Source: a virus
Taxonomy: Duplodnaviria; Heunggongvirae; Uroviricota; Caudoviricetes
Direction: 5' to 3' (one strand)
Length of the DNA: 10,060 nucleotides
IMG/VR virus record: IMGVR_UViG_2695420540_000013
The notes under the pieces were generated by a model, which was not told the origin of the DNA, searched no databases, and worked only from the letters and a program-made list of their open reading frames with translations. Positions 1,180-6,821 of the stretch are shown one piece after another; the stretch's first letter is position 1; every line of letters begins with the position of its first letter. A program made the translations under genes and the position numbers.

Positions 1180-3060
1180 TCATGAAGAAATCGCTCTGAC
1201 CATTCCGCGATAATCCAGAGCAGCAACGCCAGCATCAATGCGGACCTTCCAGGCCACACCGTCAACAATAAAGCCCTCCTGCTGCTCAAGGTAAGGCTCG
1301 TCATTACCGTCAAGATAAGCCACCTCAATTGTGTCCGTTCCCTGTGCTGAAAGCATGTACCATTGCTTATCACTGACTTCATCAAGGCGGGGATCGACAA
1401 TAATATCCAGTTGTTTGTGGTACGGGTTATATGAACCACTGTTTGTATCGGCACCGAAAGGCGTGGTTGAGTTAACCATTTGCAACGCTCTGTCTTCCAG
1501 AGCCGCAGGAACAAGAAGGAATTTTGGCACAATATTCAGCACCTCACCGTTTTCATCCCTCTGTGTGCGCATTGCACGGCGTGCAATGCCAAGCCCTGTA
1601 GTGCTGACTCCGTTATCAATATCATTTCCGTGTTTTTTGCTGAACAGCGGTATACCGTCAGAAAGCTTTGTGTTTCCTGTCAGCACCAGATGAACCAGAT
1701 TACCCACCGTTCTGGCGGCTGCTCGCCCCATTGCCTGTGGGATAACTGTTAACTGATTCAGGTCATCGTTAATAATCGCCTGTCGGGTAATGCTGAAAAT
1801 ATTTCCGTAAGTTGCCAGCGCGATTGGTTCGCCACGGTCACTGGTGGTGATGTATTTATATTCCGCGCCTTCCGGCACTTTGTTTAATGTAGAGAAGCCA
1901 TTCAGGCCAACACGACGTGCCTCATGGAAGTTTGACAATGAACCTTTTTTCGTCCACTGGCGGAACGTTTCGCCGCTGTGTTCCCATCCGGCAAGCACGG
2001 ATTTTTCAGCACCACCAGCAAGGATATAAGTAAAATCGCTGCTGCTGTGGGTGAATGCCGCGTTTACTATCTGCGAGCGTGTGCTGTAGCTGCCTGTGCT
2101 TATGCCGCGATGGGTTAATGATGCCTGTGCCATATCGAAAAGGCTCATCATGGCGTAAGGGTTGCCGCGTTCTGCCTGTTCATGTCCCAGACGCGCATTA
2201 AGCCCCTGACGCATTGCATCGCCGGTTATGTTGCCGTTATCCGTGTACGCGTAGTAAAGATTTGCGGGGGTGGTTTTGTTTGTCGGTGTCGATTCTTTAC
2301 CCATAGTGAGTAAAAGGCGTTCGCGTGCATCCTCAACGCTACAGCCTGAATCAGCAAGACAACTTATAGCCAGGTCGTTATATCTTCCATTGAACGTGCC
2401 AAACAATTCACGTATCCCGTTGAGTCGTTCCTGTTCTCCGCTGCCAGTTTTCTGGCTGATCATGCTTTTAATATTTTCCGGCATATTCGAAAAATCTCCG
2501 ATTCGTTTTGATTCAATTCTGGCCATTGCTGTAATCGCGGGTATAACCTCATCTGCGAAGCCATTAGCCTTACACTCATTGCCATCCATCCAGGTTTCCG
2601 CCTCCATCATGGCGGTGATTTCCTGTTTGCTCCTGCCCGTTCTTCCGGCGTAGGTTTCCGCCATCGTGTCGCCCAGCTTGTCCATCAGGTCAGCAAAGCG
2701 GCGAACGTCGCCCGACACTCCGGCAGTAACACCACGGGGGGCATGTATCATCATCATCGCGTTTTCAGGCATAACGATGTGATCGCCACACATGGCAATA
2801 AACGAGGCCATAGAAGCCGCCATGCCTTCAATGTGTACAATTTTCTTTGCCGGATGATTTTTCAGGGCGTTATAGATAGCCAGCCCTTCAAAGATGTCGC
2901 CACCAGGTGAATGGATGCGAAGATGGATTTCAGGCACATTACCGCACGCGTTGATCTCGTCAGTAAGTGCCGATGCTTTTACACCGTACCCGCCGATCTC
3001 GTCATAAATGCGTACATGTACAACATCAGCCATAGCCTTAATGGAAAACCATGTTTTCAT
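1180..3060 (-). CDS. ClpP/S14-like prohead (head maturation) serine protease fused to an HK97-fold major capsid protein, 626 aa
   Basis: The N-terminal ~190 aa carry ClpP-family signatures: HSPGGDIFEGLAIYNAL (cf. ClpP INSPGG..IY), EGMAASMASF (cf. GQAASMG, catalytic Ser) and MMMIHAPRG (cf. MIHQPLGG, catalytic His). The C-terminal ~430 aa resemble phage major capsid proteins (assigned from context and general look, not from a specific motif). ATG at 3058..3060 with AGGAG 7 nt upstream; an in-frame ATG at 3031..3033 is an alternative start. Confidence 0.85.
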   Translation of the reverse strand: MKTWFSIKAMADVVHVRIYDEIGGYGVKASALTDEINACGNVPEIHLRIHSPGGDIFEGLAIYNALKNHPAKKIVHIEGMAASMASFIAMCGDHIVMPENAMMMIHAPRGVTAGVSGDVRRFADLMDKLGDTMAETYAGRTGRSKQEITAMMEAETWMDGNECKANGFADEVIPAITAMARIESKRIGDFSNMPENIKSMISQKTGSGEQERLNGIRELFGTFNGRYNDLAISCLADSGCSVEDARERLLLTMGKESTPTNKTTPANLYYAYTDNGNITGDAMRQGLNARLGHEQAERGNPYAMMSLFDMAQASLTHRGISTGSYSTRSQIVNAAFTHSSSDFTYILAGGAEKSVLAGWEHSGETFRQWTKKGSLSNFHEARRVGLNGFSTLNKVPEGAEYKYITTSDRGEPIALATYGNIFSITRQAIINDDLNQLTVIPQAMGRAAARTVGNLVHLVLTGNTKLSDGIPLFSKKHGNDIDNGVSTTGLGIARRAMRTQRDENGEVLNIVPKFLLVPAALEDRALQMVNSTTPFGADTNSGSYNPYHKQLDIIVDPRLDEVSDKQWYMLSAQGTDTIEVAYLDGNDEPYLEQQEGFIVDGVAWKVRIDAGVAALDYRGMVRAISS

Positions 3061-3354: not shown

Positions 3355-3432
3355 GTCATACCAGCAAAAGAATTGACTAATTATTGCCACGCCAGCACAA
3401 TTAAGACTCATCATTTCGGTAGTGGCAGTATC

Positions 3433-3496
3433 CTTTGTCGCTGACAAAGCGCCTCCGGTGGCACCATCGGGGCGCTTTTTTTTGCGCCTGTTTTTT
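3433..3496. terminator. Cluster of overlapping hairpins with U-tracts (terminator or attenuator-like), orientation ambiguous
   Basis: Hairpin CTTTGTC-gct-GACAAAG (3433..3449); GCGCC (3449..3453) pairs with GGCGC (3471..3475), followed by T8 (3476..3483); GGCGC (3471..3475) can alternatively pair with GCGCC (3484..3488), followed by T6 (3491..3496). Strong terminator shape on the plus strand, weaker on the minus. Directly abuts the masked block. Confidence 0.45.
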
Positions 3497-3498
3497 GT

Positions 3499-3749
3499 NN
3501 NNNNNNNNNNNNNNNNNNNNNNNNNNNNNNNNNNNNNNNNNNNNNNNNNNNNNNNNNNNNNNNNNNNNNNNNNNNNNNNNNNNNNNNNNNNNNNNNNNNN
3601 NNNNNNNNNNNNNNNNNNNNNNNNNNNNNNNNNNNNNNNNNNNNNNNNNNNNNNNCGNNNNNNNNNNNNNNNNNNNNNNNNNNNNNNNNNNNNNNNNNNN
3701 NNNNNNNNNNNNNNNNNNNNNNNNNNNNNNNNNNNNNNNNNNNNNNNNN
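3499..3749. other. N-masked / undetermined sequence block (251 nt, with an isolated CG at 3656..3657)
   Basis: Run of n characters; nothing inside can be interpreted. The six-frame ORFs crossing it (3401..3790, 3422..3880, 3435..4034) are artefacts of translating N. Confidence 0.99.
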
Positions 3750-3755
3750 CGTTGC

Positions 3756-4178
3756 TTAAAACGGTATGTTATCCCCGTACGGATCATCATTCCCCGCCTG
3801 TTGTTTGGCCCTGTTCAGTGCATCAGTGGCCTGCCCCTGTTGGCCTTTTTTACCGCCCGGTCGCGCCGTTCTGGCACTGATTACACTGTCTGCGATAACC
3901 TGCCAGCCCTGCCGCGTTTCTCCGTTCTGGCCTGTCCACTGGCTTACCTGCATGTTACCCGCCACGCTCACCAGCTCGCCTTTCTGGTGCTTTGCCAGTG
4001 CGTCAGCCTGTCTGCCAAACGCCAGGACGGATAACCATATCGTCGCCGTTCCGTCATCTGCCTGGCTGCACGGCAGGGGAACCGCCATACTCGCCATCGT
4101 CATTTGCGTACCCTTGCTGGTGGTCTTTAACTGCGGGTCAGCCACCAGCCGCCCGTAAGCCGCTATCTGTGCTGTCAT
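3756..4178 (-). CDS. ssb: Single-stranded DNA-binding protein (SSB), 140 aa
   Basis: N-terminal OB-fold-like region (AAYGRLVADPQLK ... WLSVLAFG ... GELVSVAGNMQVSQWTGQNGETRQ), a Gly/Gln-rich linker, and an acidic C-terminal tail ending DDPYGDNIPF (cf. E. coli SSB DDDIPF). Start ATG at 4176..4178 overlaps the upstream gene stop (ATGA). Confidence 0.85.
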   Translation of the reverse strand: MTAQIAAYGRLVADPQLKTTSKGTQMTMASMAVPLPCSQADDGTATIWLSVLAFGRQADALAKHQKGELVSVAGNMQVSQWTGQNGETRQGWQVIADSVISARTARPGGKKGQQGQATDALNRAKQQAGNDDPYGDNIPF

Positions 4179-4420
4179 GCTGTCTGCTCTCCGGTTTTAA
4201 CGTTGATGGTTGTCACCTGTTCCGCTTCGGCAATCTCCCGTTCTGTCAGCGTGGCAAAGTTTGCCGCCGTCGTGGTCATGAATGCGCTTATCAGTTCGGG
4301 ATGTGCTTTCGCGTATCCTTCCCCGGCGTTGCGGTCGATGATTTTTATCGCCACCCTCAGCCAGTGTTCTGTCAAATCAAGGGCGTGAGATTGTGGTTTT
4401 TTGGCGTGCTTCGTTGTCAC
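4175..4420 (-). CDS. Hypothetical protein, 81 aa, GTG start; translationally coupled to ssb
   Basis: First codon is GTG (complement of 4418..4420) with a GAGGT Shine-Dalgarno 7 nt upstream. No family recognised. Confidence 0.5.
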   Translation of the reverse strand: MTTKHAKKPQSHALDLTEHWLRVAIKIIDRNAGEGYAKAHPELISAFMTTTAANFATLTEREIAEAEQVTTINVKTGEQTA

Positions 4421-4472
4421 AGGCTTTACCTCACAGCAATAAAATAAAATTTTTGCATTTTAACCCTTCACC

Positions 4473-4693
4473 TGTTCACCTTTTGCAATTTTCCCTTTTT
4501 ATTCATGATGTTAATGGGTTAACAGTTTCACAAAAACTATTCACCAACTGTTCACCACTGTTCACCCTTAAAGCTCAATAAAGAATCAAAAAGGTGAACA
4601 GTGAATAGTTTGGTGAACAGTTCATAAATAACTGTTCACCCTATAATATACTGATATAAAAGACATTTATTGCAGGGTGAACAGTGGTGAACA
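4473..4693. repeat. Iteron cluster, putative P4-type origin of replication (ori/crr-like): 8 perfect TGTTCACC/GGTGAACA octamers plus degenerate copies
   Basis: TGTTCACC at 4473, 4549, 4559, 4633; reverse complement GGTGAACA at 4593, 4612, 4676, 4686; variants TATTCACC (4538) and GTGAATAG (4601). An AT-rich stretch CTATAATATACTGATATAAAAG (4641..4662) sits inside. Located just downstream of the primase gene. TGTTCACC is the octamer I recall as the P4 alpha-protein binding iteron in ori and crr. Confidence 0.75.
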
Positions 4694-4734
4694 GTTATTC
4701 CATAAGTTTAATTTTTTCCATCGTCATTTGTGAC

Positions 4735-6525
4735 CTATGCACATGATGGCATCCAGTCTTCTGAATCCTCTGTCAGGGTCACATTTGAACGCAAACCGTG
4801 CTTCGTTTTCCGTTTCATATACTCCCTGCCATATTCCGCCATTGCCCCCGGCATATCTTTACCGAAGCGCGTCAGTGTTACAGGTTTACCGAATCCGTGT
4901 GCCCTCATATATGCCAGATAGGCGTGATAAAGATACCTGCGCGGACTGAACGGAATAATTTCGGCATTACCCACTAACAGACCATCACACATTACCGACG
5001 ACATGAGATAGCCGCAGAAGTCCACCAGCGAATCGCCCTCGCGTTTTATCACCAGAGCTTCTTCTGATTTCTGCTGCTCATACAGCAGGCGTTTAGCTTC
5101 GTCCTGGTCAGAAAAACGAGTAAGCAGGTGGCGAATCACAACCGCCAGCTCTCCTTCTATTTTTTCTGCCAGCATGGGGTCGCGTTCGTTCTCCGGTACA
5201 ACTTCCGAAAAATTGAATATCACCCGACGACGTGAGATCCCCCCGCTGCGGTCACTGAATGACATGGCGTTATTGTTAACCGCCAGCACTACTGCCGGAA
5301 TACGCGTTGAGTAGGGGGCTTTGTGTTTCGGGTCAATTGCCACCTTGTCACCGCCTGTAATGGCCTTAATCCCTGCCCCATCACCAGCGTAGCGGGTCAT
5401 ATCCGGCATGATAATCAGCGAAAAGCCAACCACTAACGCGCGTTCCCTTGCATCTTCCAGCGCCTTCATGCTTGCCGATACTGTGTTGGCCTTACCCGCC
5501 AGCATGGTGCAAATCTCCGCCATCACGCTTTTACCACTTCCCCCTGGACCTGTTACCTCAATGAATAACTGCCAGTCGTACCGGTTCGCCAGCACCATGA
5601 ATAATACAGCCAGTACGCGATCCGCCTTGCGGTCATTCTCAGCCACCGAACGGCGTAACCACTTCCAGAAATTCGGCGCATGTGTTGCCAGCGTTTCCCC
5701 CTCTGCTGGTGGGCTGAAAGGTAATTCACTGGCAATTAACAACCAGTCGTTTTTGTTATGCTCCCGAAAATTACCTGTTCTGGTATCAAATACCCCGTTA
5801 CTGAATCCAATCAGGTTACGGGCTGTATTCCCCATTACAGGCAAACTTAACTTCATGGTATCGACCGCCGATTTAATGGCGTTCTGCGAATAGCTGATCT
5901 CCGCATCAATGAAAATCTGTGCCATAGCTCGCTGTAATTCTTTATCCTGTACTGGCTCCCATACAACGCCGTTGTAATGGTGAACAGTGTCAGAGTCAGC
6001 ATGAATCGCCAGTTCACCGCCATAATGTGCCAGGAGAACTTCGCCGCGTTGACTTGCTCCCATCTGGTTAAGCGCCAGTGATGAAGCGTTATCGTCTTTT
6101 ACCCGCTCTTTTTTCTTTACAGGCAGTTCAACTACCTTTTTCTTTTCCGCCTGCTCTGCCCGTTCACGTTCCAGATATTCGCGCCAGTTCTCCCGTTTCT
6201 GGCTGTGCATTCCTTCAGGGTAATAATCAGCATCCCTGACACCTGCCACTGCCAGTTTCTGCCCGATGGTATTAACAAGCCCCGGACGCAATAACCCCGC
6301 CTGATAGAGACGCACGCGATAGCGTCCGTCCGGTACGATTTGCAGGTTGTCCAGTTCGGCAAGTTGTTGCTCTCCAAGCCAGACAGGTGGCACGTTATCG
6401 CCAGCCAGTCGCCCGTCCTGTTCCTGCCACTGTTTCGCATGTGCCCACGCATCACTACCCGCAAAAATGATGACTTCCGTCATTTTGTCACGCGGCTGGT
6501 GTTTTAAATTTGGCGCTTTTTTCAT
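4735..6525 (-). CDS. P4 alpha-like replication primase/helicase (N-terminal primase region, Walker-A P-loop NTPase), 596 aa from the preferred start
   Basis: Walker A GPGGSGKS; overall resemblance to the phage/plasmid primase P4-family C-terminal domain. Preferred ATG at 6523..6525 has a GGAGAGA Shine-Dalgarno and forms an ATGA overlap with the upstream gene stop; the ORF track's longer start (6540) and a shorter one (6483) lack an RBS. Confidence 0.88.
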   Translation of the reverse strand: MKKAPNLKHQPRDKMTEVIIFAGSDAWAHAKQWQEQDGRLAGDNVPPVWLGEQQLAELDNLQIVPDGRYRVRLYQAGLLRPGLVNTIGQKLAVAGVRDADYYPEGMHSQKRENWREYLERERAEQAEKKKVVELPVKKKERVKDDNASSLALNQMGASQRGEVLLAHYGGELAIHADSDTVHHYNGVVWEPVQDKELQRAMAQIFIDAEISYSQNAIKSAVDTMKLSLPVMGNTARNLIGFSNGVFDTRTGNFREHNKNDWLLIASELPFSPPAEGETLATHAPNFWKWLRRSVAENDRKADRVLAVLFMVLANRYDWQLFIEVTGPGGSGKSVMAEICTMLAGKANTVSASMKALEDARERALVVGFSLIIMPDMTRYAGDGAGIKAITGGDKVAIDPKHKAPYSTRIPAVVLAVNNNAMSFSDRSGGISRRRVIFNFSEVVPENERDPMLAEKIEGELAVVIRHLLTRFSDQDEAKRLLYEQQKSEEALVIKREGDSLVDFCGYLMSSVMCDGLLVGNAEIIPFSPRRYLYHAYLAYMRAHGFGKPVTLTRFGKDMPGAMAEYGREYMKRKTKHGLRSNVTLTEDSEDWMPSCA

Positions 6526-6821
6526 TTCTGCTCTCTCCACGCGGCAATCATGTTTTTTAGTTCCTGTAGTTTTTTATCAACATCCATACATGACACATGG
6601 TTATTTCTGGAAAGCGGGATTTCCCGACTGAATCTGCTAATAAAGATCTCCACGTTCAGCGAACTAAGAAATGAATAGCCATCACGGATAAAATACACAC
6701 GGTCAAACATCAGTTCTTTTACCGTTACTCTGTTACCGTTCTTATCCAGATAAATAGCGCCGGGGATAATTTGGGGGTGTGCATAACCGCTGGCAGTCAA
6801 GCCAGATAAATACGTTCTCAT
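6522..6821 (-). CDS. Hypothetical protein, 99 aa (second gene of a low-GC two-gene cassette)
   Basis: ATG at 6819..6821 with GGGGA upstream; stop overlaps the primase start. Sampled 60-nt windows here give about 35-43% GC versus about 52% in the primase gene. No family recognised. Confidence 0.55.
   Translation of the reverse strand: MRTYLSGLTASGYAHPQIIPGAIYLDKNGNRVTVKELMFDRVYFIRDGYSFLSSLNVEIFISRFSREIPLSRNNHVSCMDVDKKLQELKNMIAAWREQK

Follow-up and report, generated by a model that had tools for sequence, protein, structure and literature searches.

What does a dense cluster of a single octamer, present in both orientations beside a helicase gene, do for the element that carries it? The question is raised by a stretch of 10,060 nucleotides (the window; IMG/VR record IMGVR_UViG_2695420540_000013), in which positions 4473–4693 lie between the gene for a P4 alpha-like helicase and two genes for an 81-residue protein and a single-strand DNA-binding protein (SSB). 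An earlier note, made from the letters alone, had taken the cluster for a replication origin recognised by the element's own primase/helicase. We arrive at the same reading: the array is very probably an origin of the P4 iteron type, from which a Gram-negative phage-inducible chromosomal island (PICI) of Escherichia coli carries out its vegetative replication. This is supported by repeats that are the type 1 repeats of P4, an adjacent domain resembling PDB entry 1KA8, collinearity with the P4 sites, co-variation of repeat and protein, and conservation across genera. Further support comes from the architecturally identical origin of the PICI EcCICFT073, which has been tested experimentally (PMC6092414, PMC11338833). 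Since the repeats are identical to P4 sites, the neighbouring gene encodes a 1KA8-like domain and the two co-vary, the array is most likely read by the adjacent initiator.

The repeat array and the replication sites of P4

The 221 bp of 4473–4693 contain eight exact copies of the octamer TGTTCACC, at 4473, 4549, 4559 and 4633 on the plus strand and at 4593, 4612, 4676 and 4686 on the minus strand. This is the count given by the earlier note, which had listed four perfect octamers per orientation plus degenerate copies in about 220 bp and had called the array far beyond chance. In 200 dinucleotide-preserving shuffles of the 10,060-base window, the expectation for its whole length is 0.31 copies (standard deviation 0.56, maximum 2), and we therefore reject a chance repeat. 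The array is the sole cluster between the att core (92–102) and the start of the integrase gene int, and the window holds only one further exact copy, at 5979–5986 (minus strand) within the helicase gene, which is probably a chance occurrence. The same copy is present in the O111 relative, yet the coding sequence there is about 98% identical and its conservation is uninformative. Nor is the octamer common in host DNA: the E. coli chromosome flanking a sister island has one copy in 23.8 kb, which is approximately chance level. This background was taken only from the chromosomal flanks of one locus (L003), since the other fetched loci are enriched for small arrays and are thus unsuitable.

The real repeat unit is longer than the octamer and comprises 9–10 nt, (A)CTGTTCACC. 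In an alignment of 16 TGTTCACC-type origins (about nine genera), conservation is 0.90 in iteron columns and 0.73 in spacers (Mann–Whitney p 3e-11). The iterons fall into two sets, 4465–4566 and 4593–4693, with AT-rich spacers at 4481–4516 and 4641–4675. A 36-nt imperfect inverted repeat (4533–4568 versus 4674–4709) also lies in the array.

The left set opens with a tandem pair, composed of the degenerate iteron CCTTCACC (4465–4472, plus strand, two mismatches) and the leftmost exact iteron (4473–4480, plus strand), which has a conservation of 0.91 across the 16 origins. In relatives an exact or one-mismatch iteron aligns with the degenerate member, as does, in P4, the first repeat of every unit of the cis replication region (crr). 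The T-rich spacer at 4481–4516 aligns with the spacer of the 120-bp crr repeats, and the distance from the plus-strand to the minus-strand iteron across it is 44 bp (43 bp in P4). Two iterons with one mismatch follow, TGTTAACC at 4517–4524 (minus strand), which is exact in the O111 relative, and TATTCACC at 4538–4545 (plus strand), the commonest secondary variant among related origins. The set closes with exact plus-strand iterons at 4549–4556 (conservation 0.97) and 4559–4566, the least conserved copy (0.65).

The right set begins with a block of three minus-strand iterons, exact at 4593–4600 and 4612–4619 and degenerate at 4600–4607 (TATTCACT, two mismatches). Both exact copies align with the P4 ori core, and the degenerate one is in register with its second iteron; like the two-mismatch copy at 4465, it thus corresponds to a true iteron in relatives or P4. 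The exact plus-strand iteron at 4633–4640 (conservation 0.98) converges with two exact minus-strand iterons at 4676–4683 and 4686–4693, the latter also conserved at 0.98. Between them lies the AT-rich spacer 4641–4675, a candidate DNA-unwinding site. The least stable 30-mer of 4300–4800 starts at 4641–4642 and is 80% A+T, which bears out the AT-rich stretch flanked by iterons described in the earlier note; the iteron-to-iteron distance of 43 bp is that of P4 ori. The whole intergenic region (4421–4734) has a G+C content of 33%. The array lies downstream of the helicase gene, as had been noted: the last iteron ends at 4693, 42 nt from the stop codon (4735–4737) of the 601-residue open reading frame (ORF; 4735–6540, minus strand).

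A distant BLAST search with the intergenic region matches the P4 origin over features annotated 'ori type 1 repeat'. In the P4 sequence (GenBank X51522), TGTTCACC is this annotated repeat, with six exact copies in ori (9310–9413). Five exact and five degenerate copies occupy the two 120-bp repeats of crr (4291–4590), which follows the alpha gene directly on its 3′ side. Binding of alpha to the type 1 repeats is taken from established knowledge and from the annotation of X51522. A full-text literature search for TGTTCACC, alone or with 'primase', returned primer sequences only.

Alignment to P4 ori and crr, which the earlier note had proposed, assigns each half of the array to one of them. The right half (4593–4693) runs collinear to the P4 ori core: its iterons all fall in register, its spacings of 43 bp and 10 bp are those of P4, and the order is three sites on one strand (the middle one degenerate here), one on the opposite strand, an A/T-rich spacer of about 35 bp and two more sites. 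The left half (4465–4566) aligns with a crr unit, with its two tandem sites, T-rich spacer and opposite site. We compared the halves with the iterons held fixed and the spacers alone shuffled (500 shuffles). The left half scores z 6.1 against crr repeat 2 (no shuffle reaches the observed score), z 2.9 against crr repeat 1 (6 of 500) and z 0.2 against ori (207 of 500). The right half scores z 3.5 against ori (1 of 500) and z 2.9 against crr repeat 1 (9 of 500). To judge from these alignments, the array is best seen as two abutting modules, one crr-like and the other ori-core-like, both having convergent iterons around an A/T-rich spacer.

The crr-like half raises the question whether the array does no more than assist in cis, as an enhancer or a second loading site, while replication truly starts elsewhere in the island. 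Besides this resemblance, such a role would suit the position of the array, as crr in P4 likewise lies directly 3′ of the alpha gene. However, the gene-proximal half is collinear with the P4 ori core, AT-rich spacer included, and the only other copy between the att core and the start of int is the isolated one inside a gene. The remaining int–att segment of the O111 sister island contains no copy, and in EcCICFT073 the same region together with the gene suffices for replication (PMC6092414). We consider a purely auxiliary role very improbable and, since the island has no second cluster, prefer the reading of the array as the origin itself.

The probable initiator and the co-variation of its C-terminus with the iterons

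The gene beside the array (4735–6540, minus strand) encodes a P4 alpha-like superfamily 3 (SF3) helicase of 601 residues with a C-terminal origin-binding domain (Pfam D5_N, DUF5906 and Pox_D5). The protein is about 50% identical to residues 320–771 of P4 alpha, which comprise the helicase and the C-terminus; a weak Pfam match to PPV_E1_C is also present. Residues 502–598 (4747–5037, minus strand) form a winged-helix origin-binding domain that matches PDB entry 1KA8, the solved structure of the origin-binding domain of P4 alpha (phmmer, E 2.3e-24), and is 49% identical to that of P4 alpha. In P4, the origin-binding domain is a winged helix positioned after the SF3 helicase (PMC2777425). The ORF as listed starts with GTG at 6540 (VERAEMKKAPN...) and its homologues all start with MK.APN; the true start is probably ATG 6525, which would give a product of 596 residues.

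The label 'primase', which the earlier note had used for this gene, does not hold up well. The first 174 residues give no Pfam match at E ≤ 10. The N-terminal 130 residues (6136–6525, minus strand) form a domain that only resembles a TOPRIM fold, with neither a Zn ribbon nor the canonical acidic residues. P4 alpha is matched by Pfam Zn_Ribbon_Prim and Toprim_3, and neither family matches the window protein or the CFT073 Pri-Rep protein. At the strand-end motif, where Toprim has E-G, the alignment shows an invariant A-G-S-D, and at the end of the third strand Y-Q-A-G takes the place of the Toprim D-x-D; these residue comparisons are read from aligned sequences and not from structures superposed residue by residue. 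RepA-family (AAA_25) helicases too can carry this N-terminal domain as a fusion (P0010, P0061). Primase activity of the window protein thus appears doubtful, and its N-terminal domain is probably a non-catalytic TOPRIM relic or an adaptor. Since the domain looks inactive, priming would probably fall to the host primase, DnaG.

Homologous intergenic regions beside a 'DNA primase family protein' are present in 669 of 5426 complete E. coli genomes. A scan with one genome per species yielded 80 loci across the Enterobacterales, nearly all of which have a short repeat over-represented within 500 bp 3′ of the gene. We analysed a set of 41 loci in detail, consisting of 37 of these 80 together with the window, P4, EcCICFT073 and vB_KppS-Ant. 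Over the 41 loci, the central triplet of the iteron (TCA, CTA, CCA or CCG within T.T...CC) is perfectly predicted by a single C-terminal segment of the protein. Class TGTTCACC, which includes the window and P4, goes with [TS]K.G[ILM][RQ][ST]N; the window protein has TKHGLRSN. Class TGTCTACC goes with DKGR..[ST]N carrying a five-residue insert, or with [IV]KG..QTN. Class TCTCCACC/TGTCCACC has TKGN[MI]RSN, apart from one TGTCCACC locus (L036) with SKGNYQSN, and class TGTCCGCC has TRGRIQSN.

The co-varying segment (residues ~570–598; the 4747–4830 region of the window) follows the predicted recognition helix. Its placement on the 'wing' would follow from homology to 1KA8 and from the winged-helix description in PMC2777425. 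Some pairs of proteins have helicase domains that are 95–98% identical but C-termini that are only about 64% identical, and these pairs have different iterons (e.g., L011 versus L018). Such pairs are natural domain swaps, and the whole pattern looks like a modular, swappable code for origin specificity.

Conservation of the array extends to vB_KppS-Ant (L002, LR881103.1), a 16.5-kb sequence deposited as an induced prophage, which has a TGTTCACC origin at 4600–4828, 3′ of its alpha-like gene. It also carries integrase, capsid, portal, head–tail connector and tape-measure genes, and seems to be a satellite that forms capsids, or else a mixed assembly, rather than a complete phage. The origin of Klebsiella pneumoniae ATCC 13883 (L016) is near-identical to that of vB_KppS-Ant. 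Some E. coli genomes contain up to six places matching the origin region, and among the weaker matches are some origins of true P4-like satellites, such as L007 with psu, delta and a sid-like gene. Several matching places in one genome indicate that elements with the same iterons co-reside in one cell.

The sister PICIs provide the experimental anchor. A pri-rep-ori fragment of EcCICFT073 maintains a plasmid, and deletion of the gene or of ori abolishes replication (PMC6092414); the CFT073 protein supplied in trans, together with its 'Primase-Ori', forms a conditional replicon (PMC11338833). The origins of EcCICFT073 and EcCIIHE3034 match the layout of the window site for site, but with TGTCTACC iterons. 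Their C-terminal domains are 34% identical to that of the window protein and their N-terminal parts 66–68% (68% for EcCICFT073). EcCIRM13514, a catalogued PICI, has nine exact TGTTCACC copies in the same position. In all three islands the origin lies directly 3′ of the initiator gene, and PICIs with a RepA-family helicase have other repeats at this position.

The island and the genes around the probable origin

The window is essentially a near-complete Gram-negative PICI of about 10 kb, bounded by one att copy and the start of int. Its best E. coli match places it between clpS and cspD, and the att core ATGATAGTTAT of cspD–clpS PICIs is present once, at 92–102 on the minus strand. One end of the window is chromosomal DNA beside clpS and the other is the int start codon; the second att copy falls beyond it. 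The cspD–clpS interval is the att site listed for PICIs EcCIIHE3034 and EcCI18098 (PMC6092414, Table S1). Features by which PICIs are recognised are all present: a length of about 10 kb, int, alpA, a unidirectional operon and a specific att site, in an element that does not carry a full set of phage genes. Sid, delta, psu and epsilon are not found among the ORFs of the window, in contrast to the true P4-like locus L007.

Pfam and PHROG assignments place all substantial genes on the minus strand. From the int end, these encode a tyrosine integrase (8822–10060), an AlpA-family regulator (8193–8489), an Icd-like or repressor-like ORF (7141–7434), a DUF4222 protein (6522–6821) and the helicase. 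Beyond the origin lie the 81-residue gene directly downstream of it (phrog_1231; 4175–4420), the ssb gene (Pfam SSB; 3756–4178), which is in conserved synteny with the origin, a 75-residue ORF and a capsid fusion gene (1180–3060). The 272-residue ORF at 7364–8182 (minus strand) has an odd composition and is probably spurious. It overlaps a 101-residue ORF (7542–7847, plus strand) that has strong PHROG support (phrog_6522) and occupies the position of a YlcI/YnfO-family gene in relatives; the latter is the only convincing divergently transcribed gene of the island. Between ssb and the 75-residue ORF, which itself lies between the masked region and the capsid fusion gene, 249 bases are masked as N (3499–3655 and 3658–3749), and ORFs called across these runs, such as 3401–3790, are masking artefacts. 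No Rfam RNA family matches anywhere in the window.

The 626-residue product of 1180–3060 (minus strand) combines a ClpP-like prohead protease and an HK97-type major capsid protein in one fused polypeptide; the window contains neither a portal nor a terminase gene. In place of the fusion, EcCIIHE3034, which occupies the same att site, has a separate capsid protein, a decoration protein and a small terminase. Islands with a common att site and backbone thus carry different morphogenesis genes, which indicates that morphogenesis modules are exchanged.

The order initiator, origin, small ORF and ssb is kept in EcCICFT073, EcCIIHE3034 and EcCI042; in EcCIRM13514 it is initiator, origin and ssb, and no small ORF is annotated between the last two. 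The islands that keep the full order are not alike in iteron class, nor even in helicase family. Judging by this order, the island SSB, and perhaps also the protein of 81–85 residues (phrog_1231), would functionally be part of the replication module.

The position of the array ahead of these genes also suggests another function, that of an operator through which the protein controls the 81-aa/ssb promoter or regulates itself, with replication secondary; the two roles could coexist. The earlier note had proposed that the iterons overlap the likely promoter of this operon and that binding could couple replication to ssb expression. A standard scan of 4150–4800 finds neither a sigma70-like promoter nor a terminator-like site on the minus strand, and promoter-like sites are no more frequent in it than in shuffled sequences. 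Under relaxed settings, the same strand gives TGAACA-N18-AAAAAT preceded by TG, a weak match (8/12) whose −35 element TGAACA lies inside the leftmost iteron. Comparable matches (8–9/12) are present in 9 of the 16 related origins. The −10-like element of this candidate lies in an A/T-rich flank left of the array (4438–4456), which the 16-origin alignment shows to be conserved in several genera, also where other genes lie downstream. As a conserved block, it appears to fit an element of the origin at least as well as a promoter.

The lack of a terminator-like site between the helicase gene and the genes downstream would suit an operator, but it also fits plain read-through from the upstream operon, which is a simpler reading than promoter coupling; coupling of replication to ssb expression is possible but unsupported. 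One iteron would be enough for an operator, which leaves 8–12 oriented sites, AT-rich spacers and the collinearity with P4 ori unexplained, and the array is kept where the downstream genes differ, as in vB_KppS-Ant with a capsid gene about 600 bp later. We thus regard a mainly regulatory role as quite improbable.

Intergenic repeat clusters of mobile elements can also serve packaging (cos/pac), partition or recombination. The repeats of the window, however, are known binding sites of a replication initiator and co-vary with that initiator. Partition genes are absent from the window by Pfam and PHROG. The att core lies 4.4 kb from the array, and we reject att or arm sites for this reason. A cos or pac site is rejected as well, since the cos sites of EcCICFT073 given in the supplement of PMC6092414 are different sequences. 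Any function of this kind is extremely improbable.

Proposed mechanism and comparison with known origins

We propose that after induction and excision of the island the P4 alpha-like SF3 helicase of 601 residues would bind the (A)CTGTTCACC iterons through its C-terminal winged helix. The iterons would act as two modules, in each of which an A/T-rich spacer separates convergent sites by about 43 bp: the gene-proximal module (4593–4693) as the counterpart of the P4 ori core, and the distal module (4465–4566) as the counterpart of one P4 crr unit. Oriented binding on either side of the weakest duplex (4641–4675) would allow helicase rings to assemble, melt the DNA and unwind it. The island SSB would then coat the single strands and host polymerase would copy the circle, with priming probably from host primase. 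We infer binding by the window protein, the melting site and the assembly of a double ring from P4, the sister allele and the SF3 paradigm, and the source of primers from the inactive look of the N-terminal domain. Double-hexamer assembly by P4 alpha or by PICI proteins was not found in the accessible literature.

Several points weigh against this interpretation. We found no experiment in the literature on the island of the window or on a TGTTCACC-type PICI origin, so that binding and firing are argued from P4 and a sister allele with just 34% identity to the window protein in the C-terminal domain. The co-varying segment is not located on a structure, and a single-sequence AlphaFold model of the C-terminal domain has a pLDDT of 38.7. 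The left half resembles crr moderately: against crr repeat 1 it scores z 2.9, and so does the right half. P4 needs two separated cis elements where the window has a single compact cluster, and details of the mechanism may therefore not be the same. Also, the protein has no recognisable primase, and the origin may depend on further host or helper factors.

It is possible, if rather doubtful, that the PICI origin is a compact fusion of one crr unit and an ori core, read by an initiator that shares the DNA-recognition segment of P4 alpha. If this is true, two satellite families thought to have evolved independently have one replication specificity in common, and P4 alpha and the PICI protein could fire or block each other's origins when present in the same cell, with cross-activation, competition or incompatibility as the outcome. 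The co-residence of elements with the same iterons raises this question of cross-talk between P4-like satellites and PICIs in any case. If the tip of the wing reads the central three bases of T.T...CC, origin specificity would be re-programmable, and the 'primase' domain of PICI initiators would, if our reading of it is right, be a catalytically dead TOPRIM adaptor common to unrelated helicases. The four iteron classes, the natural domain swaps and the degenerate TOPRIM domain shared with RepA-type PICI helicases suggest testable rules of origin specificity.

The reading gives a precise position for the origin of a common E. coli satellite and ties the PICI replication module directly to the well-studied alpha/iteron system of P4. 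A conditional replicon based on the CFT073 allele has already been used for non-replicative DNA payloads (PMC11338833), and the TGTTCACC allele is a candidate for a second, orthogonal replicon with the initiator in trans. Current understanding is not overturned: this kind of origin and the TGTTCACC iteron type are already known from literature and databases. Compared with the tested EcCICFT073 allele, the window adds a new specificity allele to an origin class already described; compared with P4, it has a compact single-locus arrangement of the same sites.

Iteron plasmid origins of the pSC101, R6K, P1 and F type have direct repeats of 17–22 bp, a non-helicase Rep protein and DnaA boxes, and rely on loading of host DnaB. 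The window resembles them in having repeated initiator sites beside an A/T-rich unwinding region and an initiator gene. It differs in that its sites are 8–10 bp long and occur in both orientations and that the initiator is itself the helicase (of SF3 type); there is also no DnaA box in 4400–4760, and we reject a classical iteron-plasmid origin.

The origins of papillomavirus E1 and SV40 large T antigen have short inverted sites around A/T-rich DNA and are opened by an initiator that is an SF3 helicase. The window shares the inverted sites, the A/T-rich DNA and the type of helicase, and we use these origins as a working analogy. The origin-binding domain of the window protein, however, is a C-terminal winged helix and not the N-terminal E1/T-antigen fold, and the sites are unrelated in sequence.

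With the Gram-negative PICI origins (Fillol-Salom et al. 2018, PMC6092414) the window shares the position directly 3′ of the rep gene and two iteron sets around AT-rich DNA. Its gene order is also theirs, with int, alpA, an icd-like gene, DUF4222, a primase-family gene, ori, a small ORF and ssb all in one direction. The experimentally tested EcCICFT073 uses TGTCTACC, as does EcCIIHE3034, whereas the window uses TGTTCACC; a further difference is the ClpP-protease/major-capsid fusion in place of the capsid, decoration and small terminase genes of EcCIIHE3034.

With P4, the window has in common the identical octamer TGTTCACC in both orientations, helicase and winged-helix domains that are about 50% identical and the segment TK.G.[RQ][ST]N. 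In P4, however, ori and crr are about 4.7 kb apart, whereas the two modules of the window abut within 230 bp. Three type 2 repeats (CACTTAAAGT) lie beside the P4 ori core and none in the array, where only scattered one-mismatch matches occur, no more than by chance. Neither of the two genes upstream of the helicase gene is a Cnr homologue, and 4150–4800 has no t-alpha-like terminator on the minus strand. P4 alpha has a Zn ribbon and a Toprim primase detectable by Pfam, both of which the window protein lacks. Finally, the element of the window is a PICI without sid, delta and psu and not a P4-like satellite, yet its origin is made of the same sites.

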